From assembly GCA_047967505.1 (NCBI GenBank), contig CM106538.1: a stretch of DNA of 64,000 nt; one strand, given 5' to 3'. Below the pieces are notes generated by a model. The model was not told the DNA's origin, did no database searches, and saw only the letters and a list, made by a program, of their open reading frames with translations. Within the stretch, counting starts at the first letter, position 1; every line of letters begins with the position of its first letter. This DNA is from Dipteris shenzhenensis. Taxonomy: Eukaryota. A program made the position numbers and the translations under genes. Below, piece after piece: positions 2,116 to 26,578 of this stretch.

Positions 2116-3519
2116 TAAACTTCCTATGCTTATCATAGCAGCTAGCGCTTAAGGCGCTAGCTACATGCCAATGTATTCACGAAAAGAAAAATAGGAAAAG
2201 AGAGGAAGCACGTTCTTACTTGGAAAGTATGTGTCCTGGGCTCGGACGATCCTACTTGGAAGAGGTGTTTCGTGTCTATTGCCCTTTAAAAGAGAGGAAA
2301 CATGCCATTTTTTAGTAAAAGGAGGAATTTGTAAAAGCAACATTCCAAAGGGTACAGATTGAGGAGACAAAGACAAGCCTACAAAGAAGGAGAAAGCACA
2401 CAAATAATAGGTAGAGCTTTCATACTCTTCACTTTCATGATTGTTTTTCATGTGTTGTGTTTTCCTTTAGAGAAAGAAAAGGAAAGGAAAGGAGGAGAGA
2501 AACTTTAGAAAAAGGAAGGGAAAGTGAAAGTAGAGAAGGGAAACAAGAGGAGAGGCAGAAAGAAAGACAAAGAAACCAAACAAACTTGAAATAGAAGGGG
2601 AAGAGAGAAATTCTTACCTTGAGATGGAGAGGGAGTTGCAGCAAGTCTTGTAGCCACACACTAACAATGTAGGAGAGTATGGAGATGTGGGAGGGGGAGG
2701 GAGGAGGCAAGGGTTGTAGGTGATCATGAGCTGAAACCGAAAGCGAGGGATGAGAATGCATGAATAATCGAATGGCATCGTGGGACGAACAGCAACAATT
2801 TTTTGGTTCCTAGATTTTATCAGTATGGGCATCAGTATGAAAGTGGGTGAATAAAAGTAGAGCATCTGTATGGACGTTGGTATTGTCATAAGTATATACC
2901 GACACCCATACCAACAAAACAAGGATTTTTCGGGGTTTAGGGTTTAGGGTTTTTGGGGGGGCTTGGGGGCTTGGGAGATTTTGGAGTGTGAGTGGGTGTT
3001 TGAAGGGATCTAGGCCCTAGGGTGTTTGGTGAAAGAGAGGGGACTAGGGGGGGTAAGGGGGTTTGAGGGAATTGGGGGATTTGGGTGCTTGGGTGTTTCA
3101 AATTGGGTATTTGACTTCACTTGGGGGGGTGGCTTTGATGTGTTCAGATGGAGAGGATGAGTAGTGACAGCTCATCAAATAGGGAGCCACCTCCTGGGAG
3201 TTTGGAGTGGCTTTGTGAGAGATTGCCTTGTCCTTGCACACATTGCAAGTGAGGGGTTTGTCATCAGCAACATATTGTCATGTGCCGGCAACTTGCAGAT
3301 GTATGGAGGGGCATATCGGTTGACATGCTAGTGCATCATTAGTAAACTGATGAATATTTAAATGATTCATGGATATCTATATTGCTTGTCCTTGTTGCAC
3401 ACACTAACCTTGTATCATTATATTATACAGTTTAAGCAAGATTATCTTGAGGATGTGCACAACCACCATATTTCAAGCAAGATTATCTTTAGGATGATCC
3501 TCTAGAGGAGGACGAGGGT

Positions 3520-4690
3520 ATGGTGGACATGATGGATTCTTTTTTTGGAGGCGCCATGGGAGATGGAGCTGAGATGTCTGAGCATGAGACCATGGTGCGA
3601 GATTCGGCATCATCACACTTGTATGATGGTGCGAGGATGACAAAACTACAAGCTTGCCTCTGGATCTTGATTTTTCTAGCAAAGTATGGATGGTTAGACA
3701 CAAGTGTCTTAGCCTTGATGATGTTTGGAGCCTTGATCTTAGTGTCTCATTCCTGATTATTTTGATTAATATCTCATTCACAAGGTTTCTTGGATATGCA
3801 AATTGTAATAGGTTTCTCTAGAAGACGTTGCATGTCCCTTATACCATGCCCAATTCCAAAGACAAAGAAAAGAAGATGTTGACAATGGTTGGGATGGATT
3901 ATGACACCATCCACACTTTCCCTAATGATTGTATTTTGCTTTGTCATGAGTACATTGACGATTTGGTTAATTGCTCAGAGTGTGAAGCATAGCACTCTAG
4001 ATAGAACTTGCTAGGGGAGACGATCCAAGTGAAGGTCCTGAGACATTTTCCCATCATCGCTAGAATACATCACATGTCCAGATGCAAGTTCATTGTGCAA
4101 TTGGTGACATTGTGGCATGCTACACACCACTCCACCAATGATACTTTGAGGATCCCCTACAGATTTTGCTTCTTGGGAGCACATAGACAAAATGTGGCCG
4201 GATTTCGCAAGGGAACTATGCAATTTACATCTCGGGCTCGCAATGGATGGCATGAACCCTTTTGGGTTATGCTTCACATCTTTGTCAAGATGGCCCATAG
4301 TCTTGGTGAGATACAATATCCCACCATGGCTAAGAATAAAGAAGGGACACCTCATGCTTGCCCTACTTGTGTCGGGGAAGTACAAGGCCAAAAATATGGA
4401 TGTGTATATGGCACCCTTGATTGAGCAGCTACAAACCCTATGGAGGGGCATATGTTTCTTTGATATTTCTAGAGCCCTGAGGTAGAAACATGTGCATAAT
4501 GGGAATTTTGATGTGGACCATGCATGACTATCCAAGATATGGGGAGTGTACAGGTCCGTGCTTAAGCATGCCTATTGATACGTTTTTGCTTTATTGTGGT
4601 GTAAAAAATGCATGTGACCTATTTGTGCATGCATATATGTAGGACTTAAAACACAAGGGTAACATGCTTGTCCTATTGTAGCCCTAGTTT
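3520..4690 (+). pseudogene. CACTA/EnSpm Tnp2 (Transposase_21) remnant
   Basis: Motifs across frames: GMDYDTIHTFPNDCIL, KVLRHFPII, WPDFARE-LHLGLAMDGMNPFG, YNIPPW, KNMDVYMAPLIEQLQTLW, GILMWTMHDYP; probable intron ~4554-4642; frameshifts and stops. Confidence 0.9.
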
Positions 4691-4969
4691 GAATAGAGAG
4701 TACACAGCAAACTAGAGATGAACAAAATTTTCCTTCAATACTTATGTAGTACAGATGATGGCTCTGTCCACCCGTGCACTCCCACAATGGAGCTTAGATG
4801 GTGATCTAGATAGATAGTAGGTGAAGAGCTACAAGATGGAAGATCTAATCTGATACAATGGACTGGGAAGGTTGCCTCTTTATAGCTATGAGGGCGGCAT
4901 TAAAGTCAACATAGTTGGTGGAGCCGACTAGTCAACCTAGTCAGTGGAACTGACTAGTCATCCATGGAA
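4691..4969 (-). mobile_element. Internal fragment of Copia family-A LTR
   Basis: Closely matches 61158-61478 directly and the 38038-38680 LTR in reverse complement; both ends truncated. Confidence 0.85.
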
Positions 4970-5005
4970 AGAGGAGAATGCCTTAATAGCTCTCCTACAA
5001 GAGTA

Positions 5006-5263
5006 CAACACTATATTGGTGAATTTGGGAATTTCCAAATAGTTTGGAAATCCCAATATGGTTAAGATTTGGCCATATGGTCAAATCTTAACCGCTTACT
5101 CAAAAGTGGAATCCGCCATTAACACAATATTAGGGAATCCTTTAAAGTCCCAGTTTCAAATAAGGGGTTAAGATTTAGCCACATGGTCAAATCTTAACTC
5201 CTTATTTGATAGGAGTTTGATAGTGGGACTTGCCAAATTCCCAAATTCTCTAACATAGTGTTG
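5006..5263. mobile_element. 258-bp MITE with ~29-bp TIRs and TA target duplication (Tc1/mariner-type)
   Basis: Left CAACACTATATTGGTGAATTTGGGAATTT versus revcomp of right CAACACTATGTTAGAGAATTTGGGAATTT; TA at 5004-5005 and 5264-5265; excision restores Gypsy codons Q-E-Y-K-D-C. Confidence 0.9.
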
Positions 5264-7361
5264 TACAAGGATTGCATGGCCTAGAAGTACACCAACATGA
5301 AAGGGGTGCCTGCAAAAGTAGTGTAGCACACAATCCCCATGCTAGATGATGCTAGGCATACGTCAACGCCCCCACCCTATGGATCCCAAATACGCACTCG
5401 TAGTGAGGGAAGAAATCCAAAAAGTCATAGATGCAAGACTCATCTATGAGATTGAGCATATGGATTGGGTATCGCCCATCGTAATAGTTCTAAAGAAAAG
5501 TGAAAAAATTAGAGTATGCATGGATTTGAAAAAGGTTAATGCCACCACTAGACGTGACCACTATCCTTTGCCATTCACGAAACATGTTTTGGAAAGGGTA
5601 GCCACATAAAGAAAGCTTATAGCTTCCTCGACGGATTTTTGGGTTATAACCAAGTGTCGATCACCCTGCAAGATCAACATAAAACCACATTCACAACCAA
5701 GTGGGGTGTGTATGCATCTAGGGTGATGATATTTGGATTAACCAATGCCCCCACCACCTTCCAATGGATGATGATTATGGTATTCAAAGAGTATATGAGA
5801 GACTTTGTGGAAGTCTTCTTGGATGACATCTATGTGAACTTGTGGGATGACCACTTGAATTACCTCAAGCTTGTCCTTGAGAAGTGTCGCCTATACCGCA
5901 TATCCCTAAATCCTCTTAAGTGCCAATTCTAGTTCAAACATGGTATCATTATTGGCCACATAGTGTCTCGGAATGGAATCTCTACATACCACAATAAAAT
6001 CAAAATCATCTTGGACTTACCACCCCCAACAATGCCAAGGGATTCCAACGATGTACTGGTCACATGAGTTATTATAGGAGATTCATCTTATTCTACATGA
6101 ACATAGCCCGCCCATTATACAAAATGTTAGTATACTTTGAGTGGACTGAGGAATGCCAGAAATCTTTCAAAACCCTCAAACTAGCTCTAGCCACTGCACT
6201 AGTGTTGAGGTCACCCAACTAGAATTTCATATTCCATGTCCATATCGATGCCTCCAACTTTGCCATCAGGTGTGTGTTAGCCCAACTTGGGGAGCATAAT
6301 GGATTACCCAGTATATTTTATAAGCCGCCAGTTAAACGAGGCCGAGGTTAACTACACCACAACTGAGAGGGAAAGTCTAGCCATGGTCTATGTAGACAAG
6401 AAGTTCAGGCACTAGTTGTTAGCTAACAAGTTTGTCTTCTCTGTGGACCACCAAGCATTGCTATACTTGGTCAACAAGCCCTGCATGACTGGATGCATCA
6501 CCAAGTTGATGTTAATCCTTTTAGAGTTTGACTTCACAGTCGATGTATGTAAAGGGAAAACCCAAGTCTTGGCTGATCACTTGTCGAGAATCCCAAATGG
6601 TGAAGCCCCAATGGGAGTAGAAGATGATCTCCCAGATGCTTCTCTCTTCTTCCTTGACATCATCCGTGAATGGGTTGCCGAAATCAGCCATTACTTGGAA
6701 AACAGATTACCCCTGGGCTAGGCCCTTAAGAAGGATAGAGTCCGCAAACTCATTAAGGATGTCGCACCATATCAACTGATAGCAGGCCAATTATATGGAA
6801 AAGGCAAGGATGGCATCCTGCAAAGATGTGTGCGAACATGAATACTTCAATGTGCTTGAAGAAGCCCACTCAGGGATCGCAAGAGGTCATTTTGTCACTG
6901 ATGTTATAGCACGTAAAGTGCTACAAGCTAGTCTTTGGTGGCCGACACTCTTCGGAGACGCGGCCAAATTCATCAAACGATGCGACCCCTGCCAACGTAT
7001 CCAAATCCCACACAAAGCAAACATGATGCCCTTGACTGGAATCCTGACCAATCAACCCTTCAAGAAATGGGGCATTGATTTTATTCGATCCATAAGCCCA
7101 TAAGCTAAGGGAATCGGGGCCAGATACATCATCTTGGCTATTGATTGCTTCACCAAGTGGGTAGAAGGGAGAACCATGGTGAAGGCCGATGCGAGATCCA
7201 CTGCCAAATTCTTATATGAACAAGTCATCACGTGGTTCAAATGTCCATTGGAGTTATTAAGTGACCGAGGAACAGTAGAAGCCGGTCATACAGACTGGGA
7301 GCATGAGCACATAGCATCATTATGGGCCTATAGAACCTCCTATAAAGCATGCAATGTATCC

Positions 7362-7854
7362 CCTTCAGCCTAGCCTTTGGTGTGGAGGTGGTGATGCCAA
7401 TTTAGTATGTAGTGCCTAGCCTCCATCTTACTATTAAGGAAAGACTTACATAGAATGCGTTAGCAGAATGGCTAGTTGACCTCAAAAGGTTAAAAGAGAC
7501 AAGGTTGTGTGCAACTCACTCCTTCTGGGTAGAAAATCCCCAACATAAAAAGTGGTTCAATTGCAACCTCAAGAACAAGGACTTGGAAGAGGGAGATTTG
7601 GCACTCCTATACCTTCAGCCTAGGCTTCGATGTGGAGGCGGTGATGCCAATGGAGTATGTAGTGTCTAGCCTTCGTTAAGGAAAGACTTATAGAGAATGC
7701 ATTAGCAGAATGGCTAGTTGACCTTGAAAGGCTAGAAGAGACAAGGTTCTGTGCAACCCACTCTCTCTAGGTAGAAAAGGCCTGGCATAAAAAGTGGTCC
7801 GACTACAACCTCAAGAATAAGGACTTGGCAGAGGGAGATTTGGCACTTCTATAC
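7362..7854 (+). repeat. ~250-bp tandem duplication within the integrase C-terminal region
   Basis: CCTTCAGCCTAG...GGGAGATTTGGCACT occurs at 7362 and again at 7612, diverged. Confidence 0.85.
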
Positions 7855-8189
7855 AACGTCCATAATACCAAAGACAAGCTAAAGTGCCGAGGTATGGGTC
7901 CCTACCAGGTGGTTGGGATCACTCCCCAAGGGTCATGCCGAATAGCCACCCTTGATGGAACATAAATGGATGGCTACCTTAACGGGAGCAAAATAAAAAG
8001 ATGCTATGAGCTGATCACTCTCTCCACCCTTCAAGCTGTGCATAGAGAAAAAAACTCGAGGCTGAGGTGGCCAGAATGAAATGCTAGGCCATCGAGGAAG
8101 CTAGAGCCTGTAACGCTAAGCTCCGACAGCGTAAGCAAATGACACTACTTAAGGCAAGGACTAAACAGATGCAACTAATGGATGAGTCA

Positions 8190-8570
8190 ATAGTGGAGCC
8201 AGCTAGGTTGCTTGTTAAACTATAGGTTCCACACATGTGCATCAAAGCACTCGTAGATCCAGGAGCGAGCCACAGCTTCATCTCCTGCGAGGTATGGGAA
8301 AAGCTATAGGTACCCCTAACCCTCACCATCGCTTCAGTAAGAGCTATAAATGGCCAACTCCTACAAACATTGGGTTTTGTGAATTTAAGTTAATGGTTGT
8401 TTGTGAGGAAGTGGAAATATGATTTTATGTTCTCCCCATAGAAGCAACTGTTGGACAGATTATATTGGGAAGAACCTGGTGCTACGCCATGAAATGTCAA
8501 ATCGACTAGCATGCTCGGACTACTTCACTCAAAAATGGTGGCAGAATAGTGGTAGTCCCACTGTGTGGAC
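8190..8570 (+). pseudogene. Retropepsin-type aspartic protease domain located after the integrase
   Basis: Manual translation: IKALVDPGASHSFISCEVWEKL...VRAINGQLLQTLG...FYVLP...QIILGRTWCYAMKCQID; catalytic D codon at 8256-8258; stops and one frameshift. Confidence 0.85.
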
Positions 8571-10116
8571 AAAGTCCTACTCCTTCAGTTCCACACTTGC
8601 CAATCCATGACAACCAAGCTACACAAGAGGGCGAACCGGAAGCCCCAACGACCTCCAACACCCCAACAAAAGTCCCCTGAAGGGAGAAGAAAGCCAGCCG
8701 CAGTGGTAAACCGGTGCCATTGCCCACTCCATCGCCACTACCATCCTCCACTCAAGAAATTCATGAATAGCAAGTACAAGACGCTATCCTCTGTGCCCAA
8801 TGTCACTTCAACCCGACTCCAGAGGAAGTCCAAGTAGCATAGAAGACCCCAGTCACTTCAGAAACATCTCTTCCAAAACCATCCATTACAAGAAAAAGAC
8901 CACACCGCCAGCTTGTGCTTCAAGCCTCAAGCTCCAATCCACCGCCTAATCCACTGCTACACCTCCCCAATAGGTCTGTTAGCACCAAACACTTGGGTGG
9001 CCGAGGCAAGAAGGTCGCATGGCTCTCGAAGACGGTGCAAGCCACCAAGGTTCCGAAGGTAGCAACACAAGAACCTATGTTGTCCTGAGATGTAGCACCA
9101 AGAGAACCTACCAACGAACTGAACACAGTAGGCTAGCTCGAGAGTACTGAGTATGCACTATTACCATGAATAGTCTGACTCAACACAAATATCACTAAGG
9201 GTAGTGAGGGAGCATCGCAAGGACTAACCCCTCCCCTATGAGATGTTAGACCAGAACCTCCCTCTAATTCCAAAGGAAAACCCTCAAAAGTAATTGTGAT
9301 TGTACCATCTCTGACAATACCAACCCACTCATGAAACCAAGGGTCTGCGCCAAGGGCGGTCTCACAAGAACCCGCTTCCCCCAAGAAAATGGACCACGCC
9401 GCAACAACTAAGTACAACGCCAATGTGCCTCTGGCATCCAACATAAAACACAAGCTAGACACTTACTCTATGTGGCTATGTGGTAGCACGGTGTTTGCCC
9501 ACTCTGCATTCCTCATAATCATCAAGTCCAAGTCTAGGTGAATCATTATGGTAGGCATCTCATGTGACGCACCCGCTCCCCACAAGTCACTATCAAACAC
9601 ACACACACACACACCTATAGTCAGCACTAGGTGAGCAGAGTCAGCACGTCCATTTTTGCAATTATTCACCATCTTGCACACTATCCTCACAATCAATCCC
9701 ACACCATAAAAATGCACTCCACTTACTCCCTCTCCCACTCACCTTCACCCCCCCCGCCTCTCTCTTTTACTTCTCTGCAAAGTCAGTATCCCGCTGGTTG
9801 TGGCCATAGAAGTATACCGCTAACCGTCGCCATCTTGGATCTTGCTGGGCGGTGCCACCAAGTATCCTGTTGGCCATTTCCATGGAAGTATCCTGCTAGC
9901 CTTCGCAATCCTTGATCACACCGGCCGTTGCCAATGTCAGATCACACCGATTATCACCATCTTGTATCAAGCCGGTCGTGGCCTTTCTCATACCTTGCCT
10001 ACCATCGCCATCAACATACCCCTCTGACCATCGCCATTGAAAGATCTCGCCAGCCGTGGGGATCCAAAATCTATACAAACAAGCCTTATCCTGCCAAGTC
10101 ATCGCCATAGCAAAGC

Positions 10117-10261
10117 TGTCACTCATCATATGTAACCCTATCACATGAGTTCAACAGAAGGATATTTTTTATTTCTAAAATTTACAAAAATAAATATACA
10201 AAAGGGACAATTTTAAATAGTTTTGGAGTAAGTTTACAGATTTGTATAAAAAAGGGGTACA
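10117..10261 (+). repeat. Left terminal inverted repeat (TGTCACTCATCATATGTAACC...) of unclassified element
   Basis: Inverted match to 26438-26578; first 21 nt identical, similarity continues ~145 bp. Confidence 0.8.
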
Positions 10262-10739
10262 CTATCATGAAGATCCTAGTTCTTCCTTTGAAGATCCTTC
10301 ATAGAGTTATGCATTACAACAATGGTGCTATTTCCTAAATGTTCTAGCATCTCTGCTTGGGCTCTGCACATCTCGCTTGCTTGCATAGCCATTAACTAAG
10401 CATTGTTTAACCAATTTCAATAACCAAGCAACTTTGCATGTCCATTTCCAACAAACCGAACTAGCTCATGCATTGTATGGAAAGGAGGGATCTTTTGGTT
10501 GGCAGGATCTAAAGGATACAAGGATCCTTCTACCCAAAGCTCGAGATGCTTCTTTCCTTGCAAACGAAGAATGTGGATTTTGGAAGCTCCCCTCAATCCC
10601 AGACTACATGTGCTTGCATATTCAGCCTCCAACTCTAAGTGAACCTGGTACTTGTTGGAGACATCCTCGAATGGTGCCATGAGTAAAGGAGTGTAGAAAA
10701 GGAGAAGGTGCGGAGAAGTAGGCTTGAAGGAGTAGCACA

Positions 10740-11250
10740 TAGGAAGAGGGAGGGCAAGGAGGAGGAGGGATGGAGGAGGGAGGACCAGTAGTTGAAGAGG
10801 AGGGAAGGGGGGCAAACCAACAGGTGTGGAGGGTGATGAGTAGTAGGTGTGGAGGAGGAGGGAGGGAGGAGGGAGGAGCAGGAGGGAGGGGGGAGGAGGA
10901 GCAACAGTGGAGGAGGAGGGAGGGGGAGGGGAGGAGGAGCAAGTGTGGAGGAGGGAGGGGGGAGGAGGAGCAATAATGGAGGAGGAGGGAGGGGGAGGGG
11001 AGGAGGAACAGGCATGGAGGAGGGAGGGAGGGGGAGGGCAAAAGGAGCAGGCATGGAGGAGAGAGGTAGGGAGGGGGAGGAGGAGGAAGGGGGAGGAGGG
11101 AGGAGTGAGGAGGGGGAGGGGGAGGAGGGGGGAGGAGGAGGAGCAAGGAGGGTGAGGAGGGAGGGAGGGAGGGGGAGGATGAAGTGAGGAGGGGGAGTGA
11201 GGGAGGGGGGGTGAGGAGGGGGAGGGAGGAGAGAGAAGGAGGGAGGGAAT
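10740..11250. repeat. G-rich (GGAGGAGGG) low-complexity tract
   Basis: Dense G-runs and degenerate GGAGGAGGAGCAA.TGGAGGAGG units. Confidence 0.9.
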
Positions 11251-11699
11251 TCAAAATTTGAATTTTGAATTTTGAATTCTTTGGTCCCCACCTAGGAGTA
11301 AGAGTTGTGTAGGAGGTGTAAGAGGTGGGGTCACTTTTAACCCACCTAGGTGAGGGGGGTTAGGACTTTTTGGGACCTACCTTGGCCCTTTCATTAGGAC
11401 TAATCCATTTCTTAATCCATTCCTTATGAGGCCCTTTTGAGACCCCAATTCTCCCCTAATGGATTGATCTCACGATCGATTAAATTGTACAAATAGAAAG
11501 GGCAAACTCTAACAAATTGTAACATTTGCTTTAAAGATACATGTGGTCCTAATTTTTAAACCCACATTTATATTTTTCAAAGACATTACAACTTTGGCAA
11601 TCATAGTGTGATCATATGGGTCAAGCTCAAAAAAGATGTAGCTTATATTCAACATGTCTTCATTTCCTCAATGGGTTGCATTGCCACATCCTTGTTTAC

Positions 11700-12830
11700 A
11701 TCGAAACTATGCATTTTTGTTAAAATTTCTCCCATGGAAGGTTGCTCCTTTAGATCAGTCTTGCATAGCACGTTCCCTTGATTGCAATGTCTCCCTTCAC
11801 GGAGTTGTCACTAAGAGCATGTGCAGCATCTATGAGAAACTTGGCAATTTCCCTAAATAGCCAACCAATGATAAAGCAATCTGACTCTGGTGCCCATGTA
11901 CCCTTGGGATCTTCCTGTGTAGTTATACTAGCATATAATTCCGGTGCTGACCATGGAAATGCCTTAGGAGGAGCATAAGCCAAGTCTTGTGGATATCAAC
12001 TTTCGGTCCAGTGGAGGCTTCTTCCCCAATCACAGTAATCGCAACTCGGAAAAACTTGTCATCCCTCGTGAAGTCCAGCATGTAGTTGGTTGCTTGCAGA
12101 TCGGTGTGTGCATATCTTTGTTTGTGAATTGCTTTTAAACCATTGGCAATAGCAACAACAATGGACAATCCATGAAACCTGGGTCATTTTCCATTTTTCA
12201 ATGGTGGAGGTTTGTTTGTGCACACCTCCAACCTTGAAAAACAGGAGATGACCCACATCTCTTGGGTGTGTGAGTACCCCCATACTAGATAGACAGCTCT
12301 ATGGACAACTGTCATCGCTAGCTCATTCTTGAGTGCCAAATGAGCATGGGCATCATCTCTATTACTCTTCTTGCTAGCATACCATGATGTTGGCCTAAGA
12401 CTTGGGGACACCCTGCATCTGTATCCTGGATACCTTCCCTTCTCCTCCCTTGCCCACCAGTTCATGCAGCTCTTGCAATGGAAAGTGTACTATGTGGGAG
12501 CACATGACGGCAAATGCAATACATAGTTCTATCTGTGCTCTCCCTTCAGCTTGGGCTGGATTGGCAGTTGCTTCTGGACCACTAGCCATCTTGGTCATAT
12601 GGACCAGAAAACTGGCTATTGCCTTTCCAACAAACCCTTTCTCCTTAACATTTTTTCTACAATTAGAAATCTGTGATACCTTCCATTGAGTCATCCAGAG
12701 TGCAAGCTTGTCCTCTCCATTGACAAGCAAGGCTACATTACTCACCTTTGCATATAATTCCCATTGTCCTATTGGATCTCCAAACACTCCAAGGATGAAT
12801 TGATCAAGTATCACTTTAACATCCGATCAT
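11700..12830 (-). pseudogene. Frameshifted protein kinase gene
   Basis: Subdomains in order on - strand: LVGKGGEGKV (G-loop), WYASKK, LKNELAM (alphaC), IANGLKAIH..YAHTDLQATNYML, CDWGRS (DWG at 12023-12031), FPWSAPELY, PESDCFIIG. Confidence 0.85.
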
Positions 12831-13694
12831 GCCATTCGACCATGAGCAACTAGGCCAGGTCATGTACATAAGGTCAAATATTCAGAACACCATTTGATCG
12901 TGTAGAAATTTTGAGCGTGCATGGGCATGTTTCTTCATCACTCAATTTCCTATCAAGTTTTTTATCATTTTCTTATGGACAAGCATCTAAATCTCAATCT
13001 TCAACTACTCTTGTGTTGCCATCAAAGATGGGTGTATAGTGATCTAGTGCAATGCAACCGTTTTGTAAGCACTCAAACTTCAAAACAAAGAACATCTGAA
13101 ATACACATGCAAATTTGCAATGATGGTGTAAATTAAACCACTCAAAAGCAACGTGCAACATGCAACATCATTAATGTTTCTACATAAATTTCACATGAGT
13201 CACAACTTCTAATCCTTAGAATAAACTACTAGCTTTTCAAGGTAATGGTATACTACATGAAGTAATTCATGATCTCATCGATATAATCCACTATTATAGC
13301 AATCCTTATGTGATCTACTATTATAGAATAAATTTCATAAAGTCACTATCGAGTGTCAATCTATTAGCTAGTGGAGGCAAGAATAGGAAACACATAACAG
13401 CATCACATAGCCAAGATGATCTAGATCAGCTTTGCCAATCACACATCCAATTGAGAAGAGTTATATTGGGAGGAACTGATTGGCAAAAGTAGGCCATCAT
13501 CCGGATAAAACCCGGCTCTACTAACACCTATGTACATACATATAAGAAGATCAAAGTAGGGGGAACTGACTCACAGATGGAAGCCATCACCCATGGCTTC
13601 GATCTTTACTATTACGCACATCAATCGGCGAGGTGAATCCGATCGGCCGAACCAGATCACCTCTTGGACTACTGACACAGCCATAAGTAGGCAT

Positions 13695-13759
13695 CTCTCC
13701 CTCTCTCTCTTTTACTCTCCCCCTCTCTATTTCCCTCTCTCTCTTTTACTATCCCGCTC

Positions 13760-13828
<69 letters not shown>

Positions 13829-13850
13829 CCCCCCTCTCTTTCCCTCTCTC
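13695..13850. repeat. (CT)n microsatellite flanked by a ~50-bp direct repeat
   Basis: (CT)n ~13764-13826; GGCGAGGTGAATCCGA.CGGCC at ~13627 and ~13877. Confidence 0.85.
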
Positions 13851-14429
13851 AAACAACCTACTAAGACAGTCAACCAGGCGAGGTGAATCCGACCGGCCAA
13901 GGCAGGTCATCACTTGGCCTGACAGACTGACACTAAAGGGTATAGAAGCTCACCAAAAGGCTAAGGAGAGATTGCGACAAAAGCAATAGGTTTTGGCAGG
14001 GCGGTAGTCATGGGAGCAGGGTCCTTTTATAGAATTTTGCCACTACATTGTGTGGTACTATCCTGCACCATGCGCTATGCCAATGTTCAGGATAGCATAT
14101 CCTTCTAAATCAAACAATCTAGGGTGTCACACATGCTGATATAACATCTACTGCATGGTACAGGTAGGTTACCATGTGATATCTCGTGGCACCCTAAAAA
14201 TAACCATGCAGTGTAGATGCAAGACCGCGTCGAGTAAATGATACCGCTTGGTATGGCATGATACCACGCAGTAGTTAGATCACGATACTGTGTGGTAAGA
14301 TTATAAACCGTGTGATATGCTCCCAATTGAGCCAGTGTAAAGAACCACATTTTTTTGCATTTAGGTCATTAGGCCGCAATCTTTAATTGAAAACTACATA
14401 TTTTTATTTTTAAAAACTTACTTTTTAAA

Positions 14430-15700
14430 TCCGTGCTTGCATTCATGGATCCCGATATGCCACATTCCTGGAACATCAAGGATGATGATTCTATTGTTGA
14501 AAAGGTTCCCCAAGGTAAAGGGGTTGAAAGAAATATGAGCAAAGAGCAGAGAGAAATTTTTTTGTCCTCAATAGCTCGAGATGCAAAGATGGGTAGAGAG
14601 ATATGAAGAGGCCAAAGCAAAATGAGAGGACGAGATTTAGAGTCATGCACAGGCAAAGGGTGCCATATCCACCAAACCTTGCTCTTCTCCTCATACACAT
14701 GTCACATGATTGGCTACAATAAGCTCTTTATGAAGCCGAAAATGATGGAGAGAATGTAACCGATCGAGAGAGAGAGCTTGTAGTTGGATGTATGCCACAT
14801 GTAAGTTTCTTACCTTTCTACTTAATTTGGGTATTTATGATCACAATCGTTGCAAAATTCATCCTCATTGTTTTATTCATGTTCTTTTGTAGTACAAAAA
14901 GTACAATGCATTATGGTCACATGAATGGCATTTTTGTGTGGAATGCATCGATTCAAGAAGAGTAACCTATGATTGTGGAGTCATGGCTAACTTTGTACAA
15001 GATAGACAAGCAAGTGCTTCTAATACCAATCTTCTCTCCTCTCAGTTAGATTATTGTGAGACCATACATGACATCTATGAAGTTGATTTTAGATGATTTA
15101 GTATTTTCATTCTTGATGTCAAATGGTTTAGAACTATCTACAATGGTCCCAATGCTATAGTCAGGAGAGATAACAGTGGTTTCTTTGCCATTAACTCCAC
15201 TGGACCCCGATGAAAGTGATACTTTTGTTCTTTGAGAGAATTGTGAACAAGTATATACTAATGAATTGATTAAAAGCTAATATCTTCATTTTCAAACAAT
15301 TATTAGTAGATGTTCATATATATATATATATATACATATACTAAATCATAAATTAATATAATTATTGTTTCTAATTTGCATCTTCAACATAGGTGGTCTT
15401 TCATTTGGATCATTTGGAACCAAGATGGTGGTACATAGTCCAAATTGCTCATCAAAGAAAACATCTTTCTAAAGATAGGAATGTAGATACAGAGATGCCA
15501 ACACAAATCCAAATAATGATGCCGATGGATCTACGGAAGAGGATGAAGATGAGGGTATGGGCTAGGAAGAAGGTGACAATAATGACACTATAATGGAGGA
15601 AGGTGGAGATCATGACTTTGGGGAAGAAGAGGGAGAACTAGAGGATTAAGTCTTAGGTACAAATACAATAGGGGATGATGATATAGTTGATCAATTGTAT
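14430..15700 (+). pseudogene. CACTA transposase C-terminal region (DUF4216-like) with introns and acidic tail
   Basis: TYDCGVMANF, LDYCETIHDIYEVDF, ILDVKWFR, DNSGFFAI, DTFVL..CEQV, VVFHLDHLEPRWWYIVQ. Confidence 0.8.
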
Positions 15701-16004
15701 GTAAACCTTGAGATAGACTTATTTGGTGCACAAGACAGCTCAAGACAAATCCGTTCATGTAAATGCTACTGATGGATTATTTTGACATCAACAAGACTTC
15801 TTGTCTTTAGCCCTCACATTTTTATAGTGACATTTTGTACATTTGTATGTTAAGTTTACCATCAATATAGTGTTTCGATCTCAATTTTGGTGGACATACT
15901 CCTATATTTTGTTATCTTTCAAAGGACTCAGCCTTTGGTCAAATTTTATTTTGGATCTCTTGGAAACAAAGTTTTGTAAAAACATTGGTATGGAAAATTT
16001 AACC

Positions 16005-16247
16005 CCGAGTCGGTATCAGTGATGGTGGAAGCATTGTCATAGTTTTGAGTATGTACGTCAGTATAGGCATTGTTTTATATCGATGCCTATATTGGCCTAC
16101 ATACCGACACTCATACTGACTGTAATTTCTTCTTCCACACTAGCACCTTCCCCGCCCGCCAACCATACCAATGATTTTCATGACTATGCCTACAAAGCAT
16201 CAATAGACAGTGTCGAAATGTCGAAAAGAGACCTGTGCCTTGTAGTG
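16005..16247. mobile_element. Probable right terminus of a CACTA element with subterminal repeats
   Basis: Ends ...CTTGTAGTG (revcomp CACTACAAG) at 16247; CATACCGAC/GTCAGTAT-type motifs in both orientations, also seen at 2815-2920. Confidence 0.65.
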
Positions 16248-16810
16248 AATGCAGAAGGAGAAATGCAAAAATGGAGATGCAAAAATATAGAAATACGAAA
16301 GGCAGAAATGCAGAAATGGAGATGCAAAAATGCAAAAATGCTAAATAGGAAATATAGAAATGGAGATGTGAAAATACAAGTACAAAAATGCAAAAACGAA
16401 TATGCAAAAATGTAGGAATGGAAATGCAGAATTGTAGAAACAGAGACATGGAAATGTGGAAACGGAAATGCAAAAATGGAGATGCGGAAATGCAAAAATG
16501 CAAAAATAAGAAAAAAATGGAGATGCAGAAATGCAAAATGTGAAAATACGGAAGCAAAAATGAAGAAATATAGAAACAAAAATGTAAAAATGCAAAAATG
16601 GAGATGCGAAAATGTAGAAACGAAAATACAGAAATGTGAAAGCAAAAATGTGGAAATGCAAAAATAAAAATGCAGAAATGAAGATGTAGGAATGTGAAAA
16701 TGCTTAAGTTAAAATGCAAAAATGTAGATACAAAAATGGAAAATGCGGGAATGGAAATGCAAAAAATGCAAAAATGGAGATGCAAAAATGCAATTAATGC
16801 AGAAATGGAA
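16248..16810. repeat. Degenerate AAATGC/AAATGGAGATGC tandem array
   Basis: Short-period A-rich array running into the gap; same family as 25915-26140. Confidence 0.9.
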
Positions 16811-16910
16811 NNNNNNNNNNNNNNNNNNNNNNNNNNNNNNNNNNNNNNNNNNNNNNNNNNNNNNNNNNNNNNNNNNNNNNNNNNNNNNNNNNNNNNNNNN
16901 NNNNNNNNNN
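16811..16910. other. Assembly gap (100 N)
   Basis: Run of N. Confidence 1.
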
Positions 16911-17760
16911 TTAGAAAAGGATAAAAACACCCTAAACTACTTTAGTTAGGGTTCGCTAAGTTTAAGGTCTAGGTTAGGTTAGTATTTACCCTCTATTAGG
17001 TTAATTTTAAGCGTAGCTAGGTCAGTCTAATTGTTAGTTAGTTACTCTAACTAGGTTACTTGAACTAACTAACTATGGTCAGTCTTACCATCACTAGGCT
17101 AGGTTAGGCTAAATGATTAGCATCTAACTAGACAAATAGGTTAGTTCATCTAACTAGATCAACTTGGTTTCAACCCCTCGGTTGGACTTTAAAGTCCATT
17201 CACCCCACCATTAGGACCCCCCCAACGCAAAATTTACACCTACTTTAACCCCTCGCCATTTGGGGACCCAAACTGAACCCCATTTGAGCCTAGATTTCAC
17301 ACACCAGAAACACCATGCTACGGGTATTTTTCTAACCCATTGCACACCATTTTGGCATCCATAGCACTCGTTCATTCGCACCCCCGCTTGGGCCTCCTTT
17401 CGCACAAACTCGATCATATCTTCACACCGTGACCTTCGATTAACGATCCGTTTGCACCGACACATTTCCCTACACACGTAGGACAATCTTAGGCACATTA
17501 TTAACACAATGGTCCCTACACAAACTAACACCACTTTAACTCTCCTAACAAAGCTACATCCACACCACTGCCGCCTTGGGGCAGTGACACCCTTGGCAAA
17601 TCACGCACAATCTGCATGCAGCTATGTTTCAGCCAATGCTTTTGACTCCAACGCTCACCACATCTGCATATAACTCCACTGCAACAACCGCCACTGCCAA
17701 TCCTCTACCCCGAATCCCCCCTGAGATTCAACCACTCCCTCTAACTCCTCCATGCCCCAA

Positions 17761-19500
17761 CATGGCTAGATGCCATCATGACAATGATGGGGATCTCGAC
17801 CTCGATGTAGAGGTTGAAAACTTCTTCCATCGAAGAAATAACAACAATCAAGGCCGACGCCCCTTGGGAAAACTAGAACTTTCCAAATATAATGGTAGGG
17901 GAGACCCAGCCAGCTTCCTCTAGCATTTTGATGCCACATGTCGAGTAGGTGGCGATCAATCCCATGAAACCAAGGCGGCTTGGTTTCCAATGGCCTTGAC
18001 TGATGAAGCATCAGAATGGTACCTAGACCTTCTCGTGTAAGAACATGCCACATGGGACCTACTTCAAACCAAATTCAAACGATGCCTTCCAAATGGAGAG
18101 GCTACAAGACGATCCTGCTCTCCAACTTAGCAGATCGAACAAGGCCAGAGGGAAGATGTATGCACATACCTGGGAAAGATGAAGAGATTGATCACCAAAT
18201 GTGACCCATGCCTAGATGCAAAGTACCTCATAGCATGGTTCATAGCAAGTCTAAGAAAGAAAATCTGAAAGGATATGAAAAAGATAAGTAGCTATGAAAC
18301 ATTCAGTGCTGCTCATGTGGCAGCCATTGACATCGAGGATGGCATGACAGACTCAGACACTAGCAGTGACGACGGCAAATCAAATACACAAGATAAGCAT
18401 TCGAAAAAGGGTAAATCAAAGGACACTACCACAACATCAAATGAAGATTGCCTAGAGGCCATGACCTTGAAGCTGAAAGAAGATATGATGCAGGCCATGG
18501 ATTAAAAACTCCACTTGTCTCATTCGCCAACTCAAACATATCCACGACGAGAAAATGTCTGGTGTCCACACTTCCTAGCAAATCATACAGCAAATGAGTG
18601 CCCGTTCCTTAGAGCCAGGATCACTGCACAAGCAAATCCACCACCACGGTTGTGGTGCCATATCTGTGTCATCGGCGGCCATGATGAGAACAGTTGCATC
18701 TTCAACATGCATAACAATCTGCCTCGACCTCCACAATACCAAGCGGCACCCATGCCAGTATACAGGCAACTGGCACTTGCACAAGCAGCTAGCTCCAAGG
18801 CTAAATCTTGTTCCCATTCGGACACAAGTCCCACAACTACTCAAGAATCTGAATCCACGACCATATCCAAGAGCACCAAATCCAACTCCTCAAGCAATTC
18901 CCATACATCAATTACAAGCCAAGGAAGTAGACTCGTTATTTGAGTATGAAGCAGAATACCCAGTGTACTATGTAGAAGGTGCAGAGGATCTAATTCTAGT
19001 TTATGGAAATCAAGCATGACCCACCACATTTCGAGTACCAATTAAGTGCTACGGTTGTGGAGAAAATCACCGGATCGCGGAGTGTCCTCATCGTGGTAGC
19101 CTAGCTACTTTCCAACACCTTTGCAGAGATTGTGGCATAGGACATGCCTATATGGATTGTCCCATGAAAAATAAGGTCACAGAACAAACAGAGGTTAAGC
19201 CTGACGTCCCCATCGGCATCATTGGGGTGGACCATCAAAGTCTAGGTCTAGCAAGTGTAAAGTCACAACCTATCAATGTAATTACATGCCAACAGAAAGA
19301 GGCCACCAAGGACCCTAACATTCCAATCCAACCAAAGCGACTTTTGAAAAAGAAAGCACAAGTGCCTCCACCTCTGCCAAGCAATGAGTAGCCGAGCTCA
19401 TCCACATCAACTCCCAAGCCTCAAATAAAAGAAGCCCCATACCCGAATGCAGAGGTGGAGAAGTATCGTTTTTAGGTACTTCAACAATGGGTCCAAAATG
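17761..19500 (+). pseudogene. gag: Gypsy gag with four zinc knuckles
   Basis: CPHFLANHTANEC, CHICVIGGHDENSC, CYGCGENHRIAEC, CRDCGIGHAYMDC; stops and frameshifts. Confidence 0.8.
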
Positions 19501-19789
19501 AACAAGCTCAATTTGAGGCTAAGAAACAAGCTCAAGACCCAATCCATGACTTGGGCCCCACAAAGTATTGATATTGTACTCGAGCCTTTGTTCCAACAAC
19601 AGACTCCACAATAGAATGTACTGCCACGTCAACTTGAAGGAGCCACACTCTCTAGCATCCTAAATTGCCCTGTGTCAATTCCCATCAGAATCCTCTTACG
19701 GAATTGTCCCAATCTCTGGGAGAGTTTCAAAGGATGGACTAAACTTGCAAATCCCCCTCCACCTATGAGCGACATTGAAGATATCCCTA

Positions 19790-22700
19790 TGCGGATGGGT
19801 GATGAAGTCCAAGCCATAGTGGATGGTGGAGCAGGTGTCAATGTCATATCAAAGGAGCTCTACAAAGAATGGGGTCTCCCACCAATGTAAAAGGCTAATT
19901 TCAACATACACCTTGCCGATGATTCACAGGCTAAACCCTTGGGAATAGTGAATGGTGTGTCCGCAAAGATCGTAGGAGTCCACTTTTCCCTTCAATTCAC
20001 AATATTAGATGTCCCCAAAAAATCCTATCAAATCTTACTGGGACGTCCTTGCTTACGGGAAGCATCAGTCCTCCATGACTAGGGAACTGATAGACTGACA
20101 ATCCAGAATCAAGAGACTGCAGTCAGGGTGAACGTGGGGACAAGAGCTATTAAACCAATTGTTCCTAAAGCATTGGATGACACATCTTCCACAACAATCT
20201 CAAGCAAATCAACTCCCTTGCAACAGCATGCCATAGCAAGTGACTCACAAAGCAATGTCAATAACTGGATACAAACATTGGCAACCATCGACAACTGCCA
20301 TTTATTAGATCCCATCTTCTCACATATAGATGCTAATGCACTACAGGTCGATCCTCCACTGACACATGAAGAAACAATCGATCTACAGATGCCATTCTTT
20401 ATGGTTGACCTCGAATGGGATAACGAACCTGAAGAAGGTACCAATACCAATGATGACTCAGACTTTCCTTGGGACCTGGAAACAGAGGTTGCGAATGCTG
20501 AAATTGAAGATCAAATCTTTGATAATGACCTAGCCATTCTGCATGCCCTAATGGCAGTCGAGCTCCCAAAAGTTGAACCTCCATAGTTGAATAATAGTAG
20601 AAGATCCCACAAGAAAGCTACAAGAGGAAATCGCAGAAAATCCAAGGGTGAGCACTTTAATGAATTCAAACGAGTCTAATCAAGGATCATCAAATTGTAC
20701 CTTGCGAAGTCAACTCCCTCAAAATTAGAACCACTGCCTCTTGAATGATCCCCTAAGGGACTGGAAGGAGTATGTGCAGCACATGAACCCTTACTTGGAA
20801 ACACCTTACCAGTGGAAAAGTTACCCCACAGTTCCCAATGTAAGAAGTTTCGGAAATATAAGCCACATGTGCAGATGAAACTCAATCAAGCGACTTTAGA
20901 AAAAGAAAGAAAAGAAGAGCCTAACAAATTAATAAATGCAACTATGCCACCCAGTACACATGACACATGTCAGGCTAGTTCAACCCCATCAGAGGCCGAT
21001 CTTCGAGAAGTGCCAGAATACTTTAAGAATTATACAAGTGGCAATGCGCCAATAGCAATGCCATGACCACTCAGAGAATCTAAAGTTCAAGAAACCGATA
21101 GCATTGGAGAAACTCCAATCTATGAGGGACCGACAAAAACACACACAATAAACCTCACCCTTGAAGGGGAGGAAGAAAAATTGGTTTTCATTGGGAAACA
21201 GCTTTGTCAAGAAGATGAAACCAAACTCAAAGAACTCCTAATGGAATACCGTGACTGCCTAGCATAGTCATACAAAGAGATGAAAGGAATTTCACTAGAA
21301 GTGGCAGTACACACGATACCTATAAGGGAAGGTGCTCACCCTAAGATATGTGGACCTTATCGCACAAATCCTAAATATGGCACCATGGTTTATGACGAGC
21401 TGGGAAAACTCCTAGATGCCGGATTCATCTACGAGATAGAGCACACTGCTTGGGTTTCACCCATTTTCATTGTACCTAAATGCAACAAGAAGCTTAGAAT
21501 ATGCGTAAACTTAAAAAATGTGAATGCCACCACAATTGGGGATCACTATCTCCTACCCTTAACAAAAACAGTGTTGGAAAAGGTGGCAGGATCCGAAATA
21601 TATAGCTTCTTGGATGGCTTCAGTGGCTATAACCAAGTGCAAATTGCTCCTCAAGACCAATCAAAAACAACATTTGCTACAGAATGGGGTGTTTTTGCAT
21701 ATAGAGTCATGCCATTTGGCCTTTGTAATGCCCCAGCCACATTCCAGCGAGTCATGTTCACAGCTTTCAAGTCATTTTTGAATAAGTTTTTACACGTGTT
21801 CTTGGATGATTTGTGCATCCATTCAAACAAACAGGACCACTTCAAATGTCTTGAGGAAGTACTACTTAAATGCAAGGAGTATGGCATCTTCCTAAATCCA
21901 ACAAAATGCCAGTATATGGTCACCCACTCAGTTGTTTTGGGACACATCGTCTCTCAACATGGGATTGCAACTGACATGGACGAAATCAAAATCATCATGG
22001 AATCGCCTCCTCCTACAAATTCCAAAGGTGTACAGGTCTTTATGGGACATGCTGGCTACTATAGAAGATTTATATTACGGTATGCCATGATAGCTAGACC
22101 ACTTTACAAATTATTAGTGGAGTTCTTATGGACCAAAGAGTGCGACCAAGCCTTTGAGCTTTTAAAGTGGTGCCTAATCATAGCACCCATCCTTATATCT
22201 CCCAATTGGGATATTGATTTTCATGTACATACTGATGGATCCAAGTATGCAATTGGGAGTGTGCTTTGTCAACCTGGTGAACATAAGAAAGACTACCCCT
22301 TCTACTTCGCCAGTCGACAACTCAATCATGTAGAGATCTACCATACAACCACAGAACGAGAAGCCCTAGCAATGGTGTATAGTGTAAAGAAATTTCAACA
22401 CTATCTCCTAGCAAATGATTTTGTCTTCTACACCGACCATCAAGCATTGCTTTATCTTGTGAACCGTCTGTGTACCATAGGAAAAATAACCAGATGGCTC
22501 CTCTTGCTACAAGAATTCAACTTCAAAATCGTGGTCCACAAAGGTGCCCAACACTACATTGCTGATCACACGTCTCGAGTCAAGTCAAGAGAAGAAGCCA
22601 TTGGAGTAGAAGACAACTTACCAGATGCCACACTATTTCAAATAGATGCTGTTCCAGAATGGTATGGAGATATCATTGGGTACTTGATGGCAGAAGACCA

Positions 22701-23930
22701 CCCCCTAACATGAAAGCAGTAGATGCCAGAAAATTGATTCTAAAAGCTGCACCCTATCAACTCATTGCATGACAACTGTACAAGATGGGCAAGGACCAGA
22801 TATTAAGAAGATGTGTAATGCCTCATGAGATCATGCCAATCCTGAGTGAAGTCCATGAAGGTATTGTAGGAGAACACTTCCAAGGGGAAGCCATAGCAAG
22901 AAAAGTTCTCCTCGTAGGCTACTGGTGGCCAACACTGTGGGCAAATGCCTATGAATATGTAAAAGGTTGTGATGTATGCCAACGAACTATTAAACCATAA
23001 CACAAAGACTTCAATCCTCTAACACCAATTGTTGCACAAAAACCATTTGAAAAATGGGGGATTGACTATGTGGGTCCCATACATCCAACAGCAAAAGGAA
23101 CACAGGCACGCTGCATCATTGTGGCCACTGATTACTTTACAAAATGGGTTGAAGCTAAAGCAGTCAGAAAGGCAGATGCCAGAAGCACAGCAAGATTCTT
23201 ATATGAAAATGTGATCACCCGATTCGGATGCCCCATTGAAATTGTGTCGGATAGAGGCACACATTTTGTCAATGAGGTAATCCAAGAACTCTTGTCTGGC
23301 TTCATGGTAATCCATAGAAAAAGCACACCCTACTACCCCAAGAGAATGGACTAGCAGAATCCACAAACAAAATAATATGCATTATCTTCACCAAGGTAGT
23401 AGAACCACAGCGCTCTGATTGGGCAGAGAAATTGAATGCAGCCTTATGGGCATACATAACCACATTGAAGATCAATACAGGGAACACACCTTTTCAATTG
23501 GTGTACGGCCTTGAAGCTGTGGTCCCACTTGAATTTGTAATACCAAGTCTATGCATCGCAGTACAGGAACGCATGGGTGACCATGAATCCTTGAAAGAAG
23601 GGCTCTATCAGTTGGAAAAGCATACAGAGACAAGACTAGTTGCCTATCATGCCATGACAACAGAAAAACGTAGAAGAAAGGCATGGTTTGACAAAAACCT
23701 TAAAGCTAAAGACATCAAGGAAGGCAACTTAGTCCTGTTAATACAATGCCAAAGTACACAAGGGAAAACTAAAGTATCTAGGTCAAGGACCATACCGAGT
23801 ATGAAAGATGAATCCCATCGAATCTGTGCTGCTAGAAACATTGGATGGAGTCCAATTCAACACAAAAGTAAATGGGAGCCAATTGAAGTGCTACTACATC
23901 AACACGCAAGCCATCCCCAACAAAAATGAA
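19790..23930 (+). pseudogene. pol: Gypsy pol (PR, long spacer, RT, RH, INT)
   Basis: DGGA protease motif; FLDGFSGYNQ, FLDD, HTDGS, TEREAL, YTDHQ, EKWGIDYVGP, IVSDRGTHF. Confidence 0.92.
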
Positions 23931-24769
23931 GATTTGGGAAACCAAGTCCTCCTTAGTTAGGATTATATTGTATCATGAGCACTCACTAGCATATGCACGT
24001 TTTTGCACATATAATTTCCACTAGATTGTTACACGCACACTCACTGGCATATGCATGTTTTTACACATGTAGGAAGACCTAATCAATTTTGTATTAGGGA
24101 TGATTGAGTCTTAGTTTCCCTAATAAATGCCACAAATAAGCATATAGTTAGACACATCACATGCACTCACACGATTTTGCATAGGCACATAATAGATTGC
24201 ATCAATAATAGTATCACACACTCTCATTCCATACTGTCAAAGCATGCAATGAATTCACAAGCATGACACAAAGCTCTGCCAAAACTCTAGATGAATTGGC
24301 AAGAGTCTGCAACCTCCCCAATGAGACCCCCGCCAAACATCACAACCGTCTCCTATATGCAAAAATATATGACTTGCATACTAATTATCTACAAGCTCAA
24401 TGATACGGGTGCAATCGCATCCAACGTGTATGCAAGATAGCAAGAAATGCCAGCCTCAACAACGAGACCCCTGCCAAACCTCTTCCCAAAAAGATTTGAT
24501 GGCAGAGTCCCTAACCTCAGCAATGAGATCCCCTCTGAAATTCACAGCCATCTACCCCTTTTTAAGAGGAGATAAGCTTCTTGACTACAGACTACAAATT
24601 GTCTGGTGCAAAAGCATTACAGCAGGAATGACTCGCATGCCACAAGCTAAACAACCATTGGATTACGCACATGGCATCCAAACTTTGAAATCAAAATAAG
24701 CCATAACCCAAGGACGGGTAATAAAATGGATCCAGGAGTATGTCGACTCTATGCCAACATGAACTTATG

Positions 24770-25055
24770 TAGAAAGAGAATGTGATACAACTTTGTGTTA
24801 CAACTTTGTGATACAACTTTGTGTTACAACTTTGTGTTACAACTTCTACATATGACTTCTACATGTAGAAAGAGAATGTGTTACAACTTTTTGTTACGAC
24901 TTTGTGATACAACTTTGTGTTACAACTTCTACATGTAGAAAGAGAATGTGTTACAACTTTGTGTTACAACTTTGTGATACAACTTTGTGTTACAACTTTG
25001 TGTTACAACTTTGTGATACAACTTTGTGTTACAACTTTGTGAGACAACTTTGTGC
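24770..25055. repeat. 13-bp minisatellite (TGTGTTACAACTT) with CTACATGTAGAAAGAGAA interruptions
   Basis: Visible tandem units. Confidence 0.9.
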
Positions 25056-25209
25056 AGAGAGAGAAGCTCTCCAACTTGTATAAATACCCCATAATGGAAT
25101 GAAGCCCACACTCTTTCGAGAATTGTGTTGAGTCTACTTTGGTATTCCAAGCATTTGTCTCAAGTGTCCATGCTTCCTTGCACTCCATGTCCAAAAGCAT
25201 GTCCTAACC

Positions 25210-25670
25210 TTGCAACTCCTCCTCCCCTCTCCTCCAACCTTGTAACCCATCCTCTCCCTCTCCTCTTCCCTCCTCCTCCTCTTTCCTCCTCCTCCTCCTC
25301 CTCCCTCCGCCTCCTACTCCTCTCTCCTCGTCCTCCCTCCTCCTCCCTCCTCTCTTTTCTTTCCCCCATGCTAATACACCTTCTTCCTCTTCCACTCCTA
25401 TGCTCCCCCTAAACCCTTTGTTTCTCAACCCTTAAAACTTCATGATCTACGAGGGAGACGAGTTCTCCACCATGTACTCTACCCTAAACCTTGGAACCTC
25501 CTTCTAAACCCTGGAACCTCCTTCTGAACCGATCCTCCTTCTAACCCTGGACTCCTTCTAAACCCTAGAACCTCCTTCTCAACCCTGGAACATCCTTCTC
25601 AACCCTGGAACCTCCTTTAACCCTTAAACCTCCTTCTAACCCTTAAACTCCTCCTAAACCCTACAACCCC
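25210..25670. repeat. CCT-rich tract followed by ~20-bp AAACCCTGGAACCTCCTTCT tandem repeats
   Basis: Visible in sequence. Confidence 0.85.
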
Positions 25671-25914
25671 CAATGAAGGCAAAAGCCTTCATTACCTCAA
25701 CAAAGATGATTTACGTTCCTTTTACACATGCATGCACTTTGTTTGCGTACCACACTTAAGCCTACGTCTCTCACTGGAACACCACTCGAGGTCCTAAGCT
25801 ACATGCATACTACAACCGACAACCCCAATATATCTGTAGGTGACAAAAAGCCTCGGAACTCTACATACAGAGATAACCGAGCTCTTCCTACAAAAGCAGT
25901 AGGAAAGAGCCAAC

Positions 25915-26140
25915 AGAAATGCAAAAATGGGGAAATGGAGATGTGGAAATGCAAAAATACAAAAATAGGAATACATAAGCAGAAATGCAAGAATGGAGAT
26001 GCGAAATGCAGAAAGAAAAATGCAAAATGTGGAAATGGAGAGCAAAAATGCAAAAACAAAATGCAGAAATGCAAAAATATGAAAATGGATATGTGGAAAT
26101 GTGGAAATGGAAATGCAAAAATGCAGAAATGCGGAAACAA
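25915..26140. repeat. AAATGC-type array, ~300 bp inside the right TIR
   Basis: Same motif and orientation as 16248-16810. Confidence 0.85.
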
Positions 26141-26437
26141 AAAGAGAGAAAAACAAGGGAAAAGGTGATCCATATGTTCTACCATCAAAACCTCATCGAG
26201 ATAAAAATGATAAAAGGAGAAATGGAAAACCATGATAAAAATAAAATGATATGCGGAGTGCATGAAACCATACGTCACCAGTGCAATGGTATGTAAGGAT
26301 AACAAAGATCCACAATACAATGATATCCCAGAGCATGAGATCATAGATCAGTAACTCGAGGGGGGGGGGAACTCTATATCACATGCATTCAATGCCTATT
26401 TGTAAAATCCCTTATAGTAAAATTTTCCTTAATAAAA

Positions 26438-26578
26438 TGTACCCTTTTTCTATACAAATCTATAAAATTTTCCCAAATTTACTTTAAATATTCCCTTATG
26501 TAAATTAATTTTTGTGAAATTTAGGAATTAAAAATAACCTTTCGTTTCATGTGACAAGGTTACATATGATGAGTGACA
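26438..26578 (-). repeat. Right terminal inverted repeat (...GGTTACATATGATGAGTGACA)
   Basis: Inverted match to 10117-10261. Confidence 0.8.

Follow-up and report, generated by a model that had tools for sequence, protein, structure and literature searches.

When DNA transposons of plants carry gene fragments, these are as a rule pseudogenes without function, as stated in passages of a review (PMC13317346) whose text does not contain the word 'kinase'. Neither these passages nor a full-text literature search described a kinase carried by a plant transposon, which is no proof of its absence in print. Here we describe a kinase-like pseudogene on the minus strand of a 64-kb stretch of DNA from Dipteris shenzhenensis (GenBank assembly GCA_047967505.1, contig CM106538.1), hereafter called the window, to which all coordinates refer. 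The kinase-like stretch occupies positions 11649-12826, 1.5 kb inward of one arm of an inverted repeat. An initial annotation, made from the letters of the window, had proposed a cargo kinase of a transposon at this site. We consider it probable that a very divergent kinase gene of eukaryotic type is present here as one dead copy without introns, residing as a passenger in or beside a non-autonomous element.

The locus resembles Pack-MULE and Pack-CACTA elements in that a host-type, non-transposase coding sequence lies within long inverted termini, without a transposase and in a non-functional state. It differs from them in having no 9-bp or 3-bp target-site duplication, in that no parent gene was identified in protein collections, and in that its arms lie 16.4 kb apart with an assembly gap and a retroelement inside. 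Moreover, capture would here have involved a complete domain without introns instead of a fragment made up of exons and introns.

With the FunK1 kinases of fungi and the Crinkler-type kinases of oomycetes, to which the stretch had been likened, it shares the idea alone, namely that of lineage-specific, divergent and possibly multicopy kinases. Pfam includes a FunK1 model, yet no Pfam family beyond PF00069 and PF07714, and thus no FunK1-type or viral-type kinase, matched any piece of the stretch, and the surrounding DNA appears plant-like; we see no sign of FunK1, Crinkler or viral kinases. A further comparison concerns the extra or antisense open reading frames (ORFs) of Ogre/Tat-type retrotransposons. 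An unexplained ORF near a terminal repeat unit beside Ty3/Gypsy sequence is common to both, but the kinase described here is antisense to the Gypsy element, lies 5 kb and an assembly gap away from it, and is not accompanied by a pair of long terminal repeats (LTRs). We know of no kinase in the extra ORFs of plant LTR retrotransposons.

Ordered kinase motifs on the minus strand

The canonical kinase motifs, including the AxK lysine and the alpha-C glutamate, are all present on the minus strand, in order and at kinase-like spacing. Their series from GKGGEGKV to SDCFIIG, which the initial annotation had pointed out, extends to a tail reading EQPSMGEIL (12454-11721). An open frame of 143 codons (12826-12395) leads into it, with about 124 codons ahead of the glycine-rich loop GKGGEGKV (12431-12454), which is located close to the end of this frame. 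The initial annotation had noted an N-terminal extension of more than 100 residues, but the frame begins without an ATG and its first in-frame methionine is found at 12694.

The catalytic domain that follows comprises about 250 codons. A second frame holds ASKK (12367-12378), the candidate beta-3 lysine (AxK) judging from its position about 20 residues past the valine of the glycine-rich loop, and KNELAM (12313-12330), the candidate alpha-C glutamate on the grounds of its spacing, 16 residues past the AxK lysine. The same frame continues to the catalytic loop HTDLQATN (12085-12108), which is of the non-RD type and belongs to the sole segment with profile support. DWG (12023-12031) occupies the DFG position 24 residues past the catalytic aspartate and shares its frame with the glycine-rich loop, as do SAPE, the APE motif (11939-11950), and SDCFIIG, the start of alpha-F (11864-11884), both of which are motif matches alone, without profile support. 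The subdomain-XI-like tail EQPSMGEIL (11721-11747), in which the arginine position reads glutamine, is in a third frame and is without sequence-search support. From the glycine-rich loop to HxD there are 115 residues, and from DWG to APE 28. No intron interrupts the kinase domain, which is contiguous, as had been supposed.

As a generic description of this arrangement, we used a chain of GxGxxGxV, HxD[LIVM]xxxN, D[FWYLM]G and [ASP]PE at kinase-like distances, in any frame and on both strands. This chain, whose motifs were defined post hoc, after the finding was known, occurred once in the window and in none of 200 block shuffles. GxGxxGxV itself was found just twice on the minus strand of the window.

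The claim of possible upstream exons did not hold up. The strings behind it do exist (TTTCAG at 13101-13096 and ATG...GTGAGT at 13594-13569), but there is no open or coding-like stretch beyond about 12850 and Pfam gave no matches there; the open-frame signal is limited to about 11700-12850.

Compared with eukaryotic protein kinases in general, the stretch has the canonical motifs in order and a catalytic-loop segment that matches PF00069 and PF07714. It departs from them in reading HTD for HRD, DWG for DFG and PWSAPE for GYxAPE, in scoring under both cut-offs and in being broken as a gene. Its non-RD signature with HxD and DWG had been described as unlike that of plant receptor-like kinases (RLKs), which we find doubtful. 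Plant RLK/Pelle kinases often carry H-x-D-[IL]-K-A-[ST]-N-x-L-L-D and G-x-G-G-F-G-x-V, and this group includes members of the non-RD type. By its motifs, the stretch would come closest to the TKL group, to which plant RLK/Pelle kinases belong. GxGGxGKV and H-x-D-[IL]-x-A-T-N-x-x-L-D of the present stretch presumably resemble these signatures, and we take C-x-x-D-x-x-x-[RQ]-P-S-M-x-E-I to resemble subdomain XI of TKL kinases. On the other hand, the stretch differs from plant receptor kinases in that STK16, ERK2 and CDK8 are its best solved relatives among the matches listed, and in having no extracellular or transmembrane part.

The hinge and alpha-D region of the kinase contains an imperfect palindrome of 96 bp (12170-12265), whose 45-nt arms are 76% complementary around a 6-nt spacer and which spans the first of two in-frame TGA codons. 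Folded as single-stranded DNA it reaches -25 kcal/mol (z = -4.0; 0 of 200 shuffles equally stable). Since the spacing from the glycine-rich loop to HxD is normal, the palindrome is not a simple insertion. Rfam gave no match in the window and none for the palindrome. Upstream of the kinase there is a (GA)n/(TC)n microsatellite (13694-13850), flanked on the minus strand by two directly repeated copies of a sequence some 25 nt long (ggccg.tcggattcacctcgcc; 13620-13650 and 13870-13895).

Evidence on kinase ancestry and the state of the copy

Profile evidence came from the piece reaching from AxK to HxD. In Pfam it matched Pkinase with E = 6.4e-4 and 19.6 bits, below the PF00069 gathering cut-off of 31.7 bits, its residues 66-115 aligning with model positions 90-133. 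A second match, to PK_Tyr_Ser-Thr (PF07714; E = 0.0083), was likewise under the cut-off. When 57 ORF pieces of the 9 kb around it were compared with Pfam, Pkinase was the sole family at E<0.01, the runner-up reaching 0.038. In the PDB, all 60 matches listed for the same piece were kinases, with STK16 (E = 0.002), ERK2 and CDK8 at the top and IRAK4 at E = 0.27. The ESM Atlas grouped the catalytic-loop fragment with Pkinase clusters (score 0.93). The catalytic-loop segment is of kinase ancestry, and we regard such an ancestry as very likely for the entire stretch 12826-11649.

AlphaFold2, run in single-sequence mode on the two largest pieces, gave models too unconfident to be used (predicted local distance difference test, pLDDT, 42.2 and 44.1), and the N-terminal frame of 143 codons had no usable ESM Atlas match and a low 'recognition' value.

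Whereas a working gene has an uninterrupted reading frame, the kinase copy carries three frameshifts, in agreement with the split frame noticed initially, and two in-frame TGA codons. The first shift (about 12385-12412) leads from the frame of the glycine-rich loop to that of AxK. The second (12035-12039) lies directly ahead of DWG, as a 5-nt stretch between the last codon of one frame and the first of the next, and the third (11753-11807) precedes the EQPSMGEIL tail. One TGA (12184-12186) falls between the hinge region and alpha-E, the other (11996-11998) in the activation segment. With these breaks, the copy is unable to make the ancestral protein.

Even so, the frame is well kept. When the best reading path over the 1178 nt was traced by dynamic programming, with each frameshift or stop counted as a disruption, it contained five disruptions compared with 12.7±2.0 in composition-matched shuffles, none of 500 shuffles having five or fewer. 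As a rough estimate, two stops per about 390 codons would correspond to a few per cent of neutral change after inactivation. The small number of accumulated breaks suggests that the copy was inactivated recently, and its divergence from known kinases would therefore have arisen under a maintained frame rather than through decay. The CpG observed/expected ratio is 0.21 in the kinase stretch and 0.32 in the whole window, a depletion which fits long-standing cytosine methylation.

We picture the ancestor as a gene of about 350 codons, which would have had every residue for phosphotransfer (glycine-rich loop, AxK lysine, alpha-C glutamate, HxD...N, DxG and APE). Judging from its motifs, it was of the non-RD type and probably encoded an active, soluble kinase. 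Its divergence would have been gained while the frame was still maintained, to be followed by inactivation at a later and, as the few breaks suggest, recent time.

Searches for relatives retrieved neither the conventional single-copy host kinase that had been named as the outcome contrary to the cargo proposal nor any close relative among annotated proteins. A word-indexed protein search found none for the N-terminal piece (against longer proteins) or for the AxK-to-HxD piece (against longer and near-length proteins). An exhaustive HMMER search used the N-terminal piece of 143 residues; its two matches at E<=0.001 were to repeat or low-complexity proteins over short stretches, and we judged them spurious. 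Of 79 matches to protein patterns in metagenome contigs, none was confirmed, and viral contigs yielded no confirmed match either. There is no second kinase copy within the window and none in the DNA beside the right arm of the inverted repeat.

The inverted repeat and the explanations weighed

The kinase does lie about 1.5 kb inside a repeat terminus, as initially noted, its 3' end being 1.53 kb away from it. The left arm, with the terminus TGTCAC..., covers 145 bp on the plus strand (10117-10261) and aligns with the right arm on the minus strand (26438-26578) at 80% identity (E = 4e-31); under looser scoring, the arms align over 156 bp at 78.8%. Their outer 21 nt are identical, have no further occurrence in the window and gave no exact match in metagenome contigs. 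A GGAGG-rich low-complexity block (10747-11248, plus strand) separates the left terminus from the kinase, and a complementary CTC-rich block (25206-25352) is situated near the right terminus, so that mirror-image blocks follow both arms.

A run of 100 N (16811-16910) marks an assembly gap, with the kinase-bearing segment on one side and a Ty3/Gypsy element on the other. The arms need not form one element, and the true partner of the left arm could be hidden in the gap. Between the arms, none of 57 ORF pieces of at least 45 aa and none of 28 ORFs of at least 70 aa matched a transposase; the only matches were to Ty3/Gypsy pol domains. Two minisatellite arrays (16248-16793 and 25914-26137) are built from a GAAATGCAAAAATG-type unit in like orientation, one stopping 17 bp ahead of the gap and the other lying 300 bp inside the right arm.

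The internal region of the Ty3/Gypsy element (17760-23926, plus strand; gag start near 17760 placed by eye) encodes reverse transcriptase, RNase H and integrase. Its pol domains (21268-23926) matched RVT_1 (3.2e-25), RT_RNaseH_2 (5.9e-28), Integrase_H2C2 (7.7e-9) and rve (1.3e-12) in Pfam. No LTR pair was detected around it: in a sensitive blastn comparison of 10117-17760 with 23930-26578, the only sequences to align were the inverted termini and a minisatellite present in both segments. There is no tRNA-Met primer-binding site near 17.6 kb.

The kinase copy lies in CpG-depleted, repeat-derived DNA and is most likely an inert passenger, that is, a duplicated or captured gene copy which would have come to lie in or beside a non-autonomous element and would play no role in transposition. 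The most economical view is that of a passenger, be it a captured pseudogene or one that merely resides there, and it agrees with passages of PMC13317346 on transduplicated fragments. A dead passenger would be a further case of gene remnants among the repeats of a large plant genome, and the practical use of recognizing it would be to mask the stretch and not to call a gene.

Several results weigh against this view. The Pkinase score stays under its cut-off, and the ESM Atlas match has 120 of 256 features in common, fewer than is usual for matches within a family. No kinase was retrieved from Pfam or the PDB with the glycine-rich loop piece, with the tail or with the piece that reaches from DWG to APE, and a read-through of frame 0 with X at its nine stops matched no Pfam family. 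The openness of the frame is not rare, as 61 of 310 real windows of equal length from the 64 kb also have five or fewer disruptions, retrotransposon genes and low-complexity runs being among them. A parent gene or sibling copy is absent from the protein, metagenome and viral searches and from the window, leaving a recent origin from a live gene unconfirmed. The arms lack a target-site duplication of 2, 3, 8 or 9 bp (expected lengths being 9 bp for MULE, 8 for hAT and 3 for CACTA/PIF elements), the left flank reading ...tagcaaagc and the right ataatgaaa.... Finally, the assembly gap lies inside the inverted-repeat pair, and neither contiguity nor orientation across it is guaranteed.

Some of these points bear on the more radical explanation that there is no kinase at all, the motifs and the weak profile match having come about by chance in repeat DNA that codes for nothing. 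The score under the Pfam cut-off, three of four pieces without profile or PDB support, pLDDT values of 42 and 44 for two pieces and the low Atlas 'recognition' of the N-terminal frame all speak for such a coincidence. However, chance accounts poorly for a motif chain absent from 200 shuffled windows, for kinase-like spacing throughout, for kinases in 60 of the 60 PDB matches listed and for a frame path much more open than in shuffles, which makes this explanation improbable. A different alternative accepts the kinase and reinterprets the arms as the ends of two opposed LTR-type repeats, not as terminal inverted repeats (TIRs), so that the kinase would lie in or just upstream of a long terminal unit of a non-autonomous retroelement, or simply between unrelated repeats. 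The termini do read TG...CA, no target-site duplication links the arms, and the right arm closes a 2.6-kb block which directly follows the Ty3/Gypsy integrase and in which about 20 tandem 13-mers and then TATAAATA form an LTR-promoter-like arrangement. Yet the Gypsy element has no partner in direct orientation that could serve as its 5' LTR, since only the inverted termini of 145-156 bp and minisatellites align. Besides, the similarity ends after about 150 bp, as in TIRs and unlike LTR copies of one family, and the primer-binding site near 17.6 kb is missing. We see such LTR ends as a possible but rather unlikely explanation.

The cargo proposal appears unlikely to us. According to it, a DNA transposon family with many copies and TGTCAC... 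inverted termini would include the kinase among its regular genes and thereby propagate a divergent, lineage-specific kinase, the present copy being a decayed member. It would account for the position of the kinase 1.53 kb inside a real 145-bp terminus with a perfectly conserved outer 21 nt, for the mirror-image low-complexity blocks and for the stronger CpG depletion of the kinase stretch relative to the window average. A frame that is well kept yet unlike any annotated protein would also fit a family that was repeat-masked before annotation; this combination of a preserved frame and no recognisable relative is the one feature that leaves the possibility alive. The proposal is countered by the absence of a target-site duplication and of a transposase between the arms, by the gap and the Ty3/Gypsy element that separate them, and by the fact that no other copy turned up in the window, beside the right arm or in the scans of metagenome and viral contigs. 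Equally doubtful is the more far-reaching idea of a lineage-specific, unannotated family of very divergent non-RD kinases, which would be a standing gene of a TGTCAC... plant DNA transposon family and might target proteins of the host or of silencing. Should there be intact copies linked to the terminus, a kinase as the regular load of a plant transposon would represent a new kind of transposon cargo, and one could then ask whether phosphorylation serves mobile elements to interfere with host silencing or defence.

Other retroelements and repeats in the window

The window looks like plant DNA in which retrotransposons dominate, with Ty3/Gypsy sequence, several Ty1/Copia copies and ORFs with DUF4283 and DUF4219 domains, which are typical of plants. 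An ORF with a DUF4283 domain (E = 1.7e-6) is located at 28470-28985 on the minus strand.

The block 24781-25086, which lies downstream of the integrase of the Gypsy element, has TGTGTTACAACTT repeated in tandem about 20 times and then TATAAATA (25079-25086), and resembles a repeat-enhancer and promoter unit. A second Ty3/Gypsy copy at 3000-9000 on the plus strand shares 65-69% identity with the one at 21.4-23.2 kb over reverse transcriptase and integrase segments.

A Ty1/Copia element at 52089-57567 is bounded by 300-bp direct repeats (52089-52388 and 57268-57567) that are 99% identical, and has a tRNA-Met primer-binding site (52441-52452) as well as an open pol frame of 752 aa. It looks like a young and possibly intact insertion. 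Related copies are present at 39.4-42.5 kb and, in the opposite orientation, at 61.9-64 kb.

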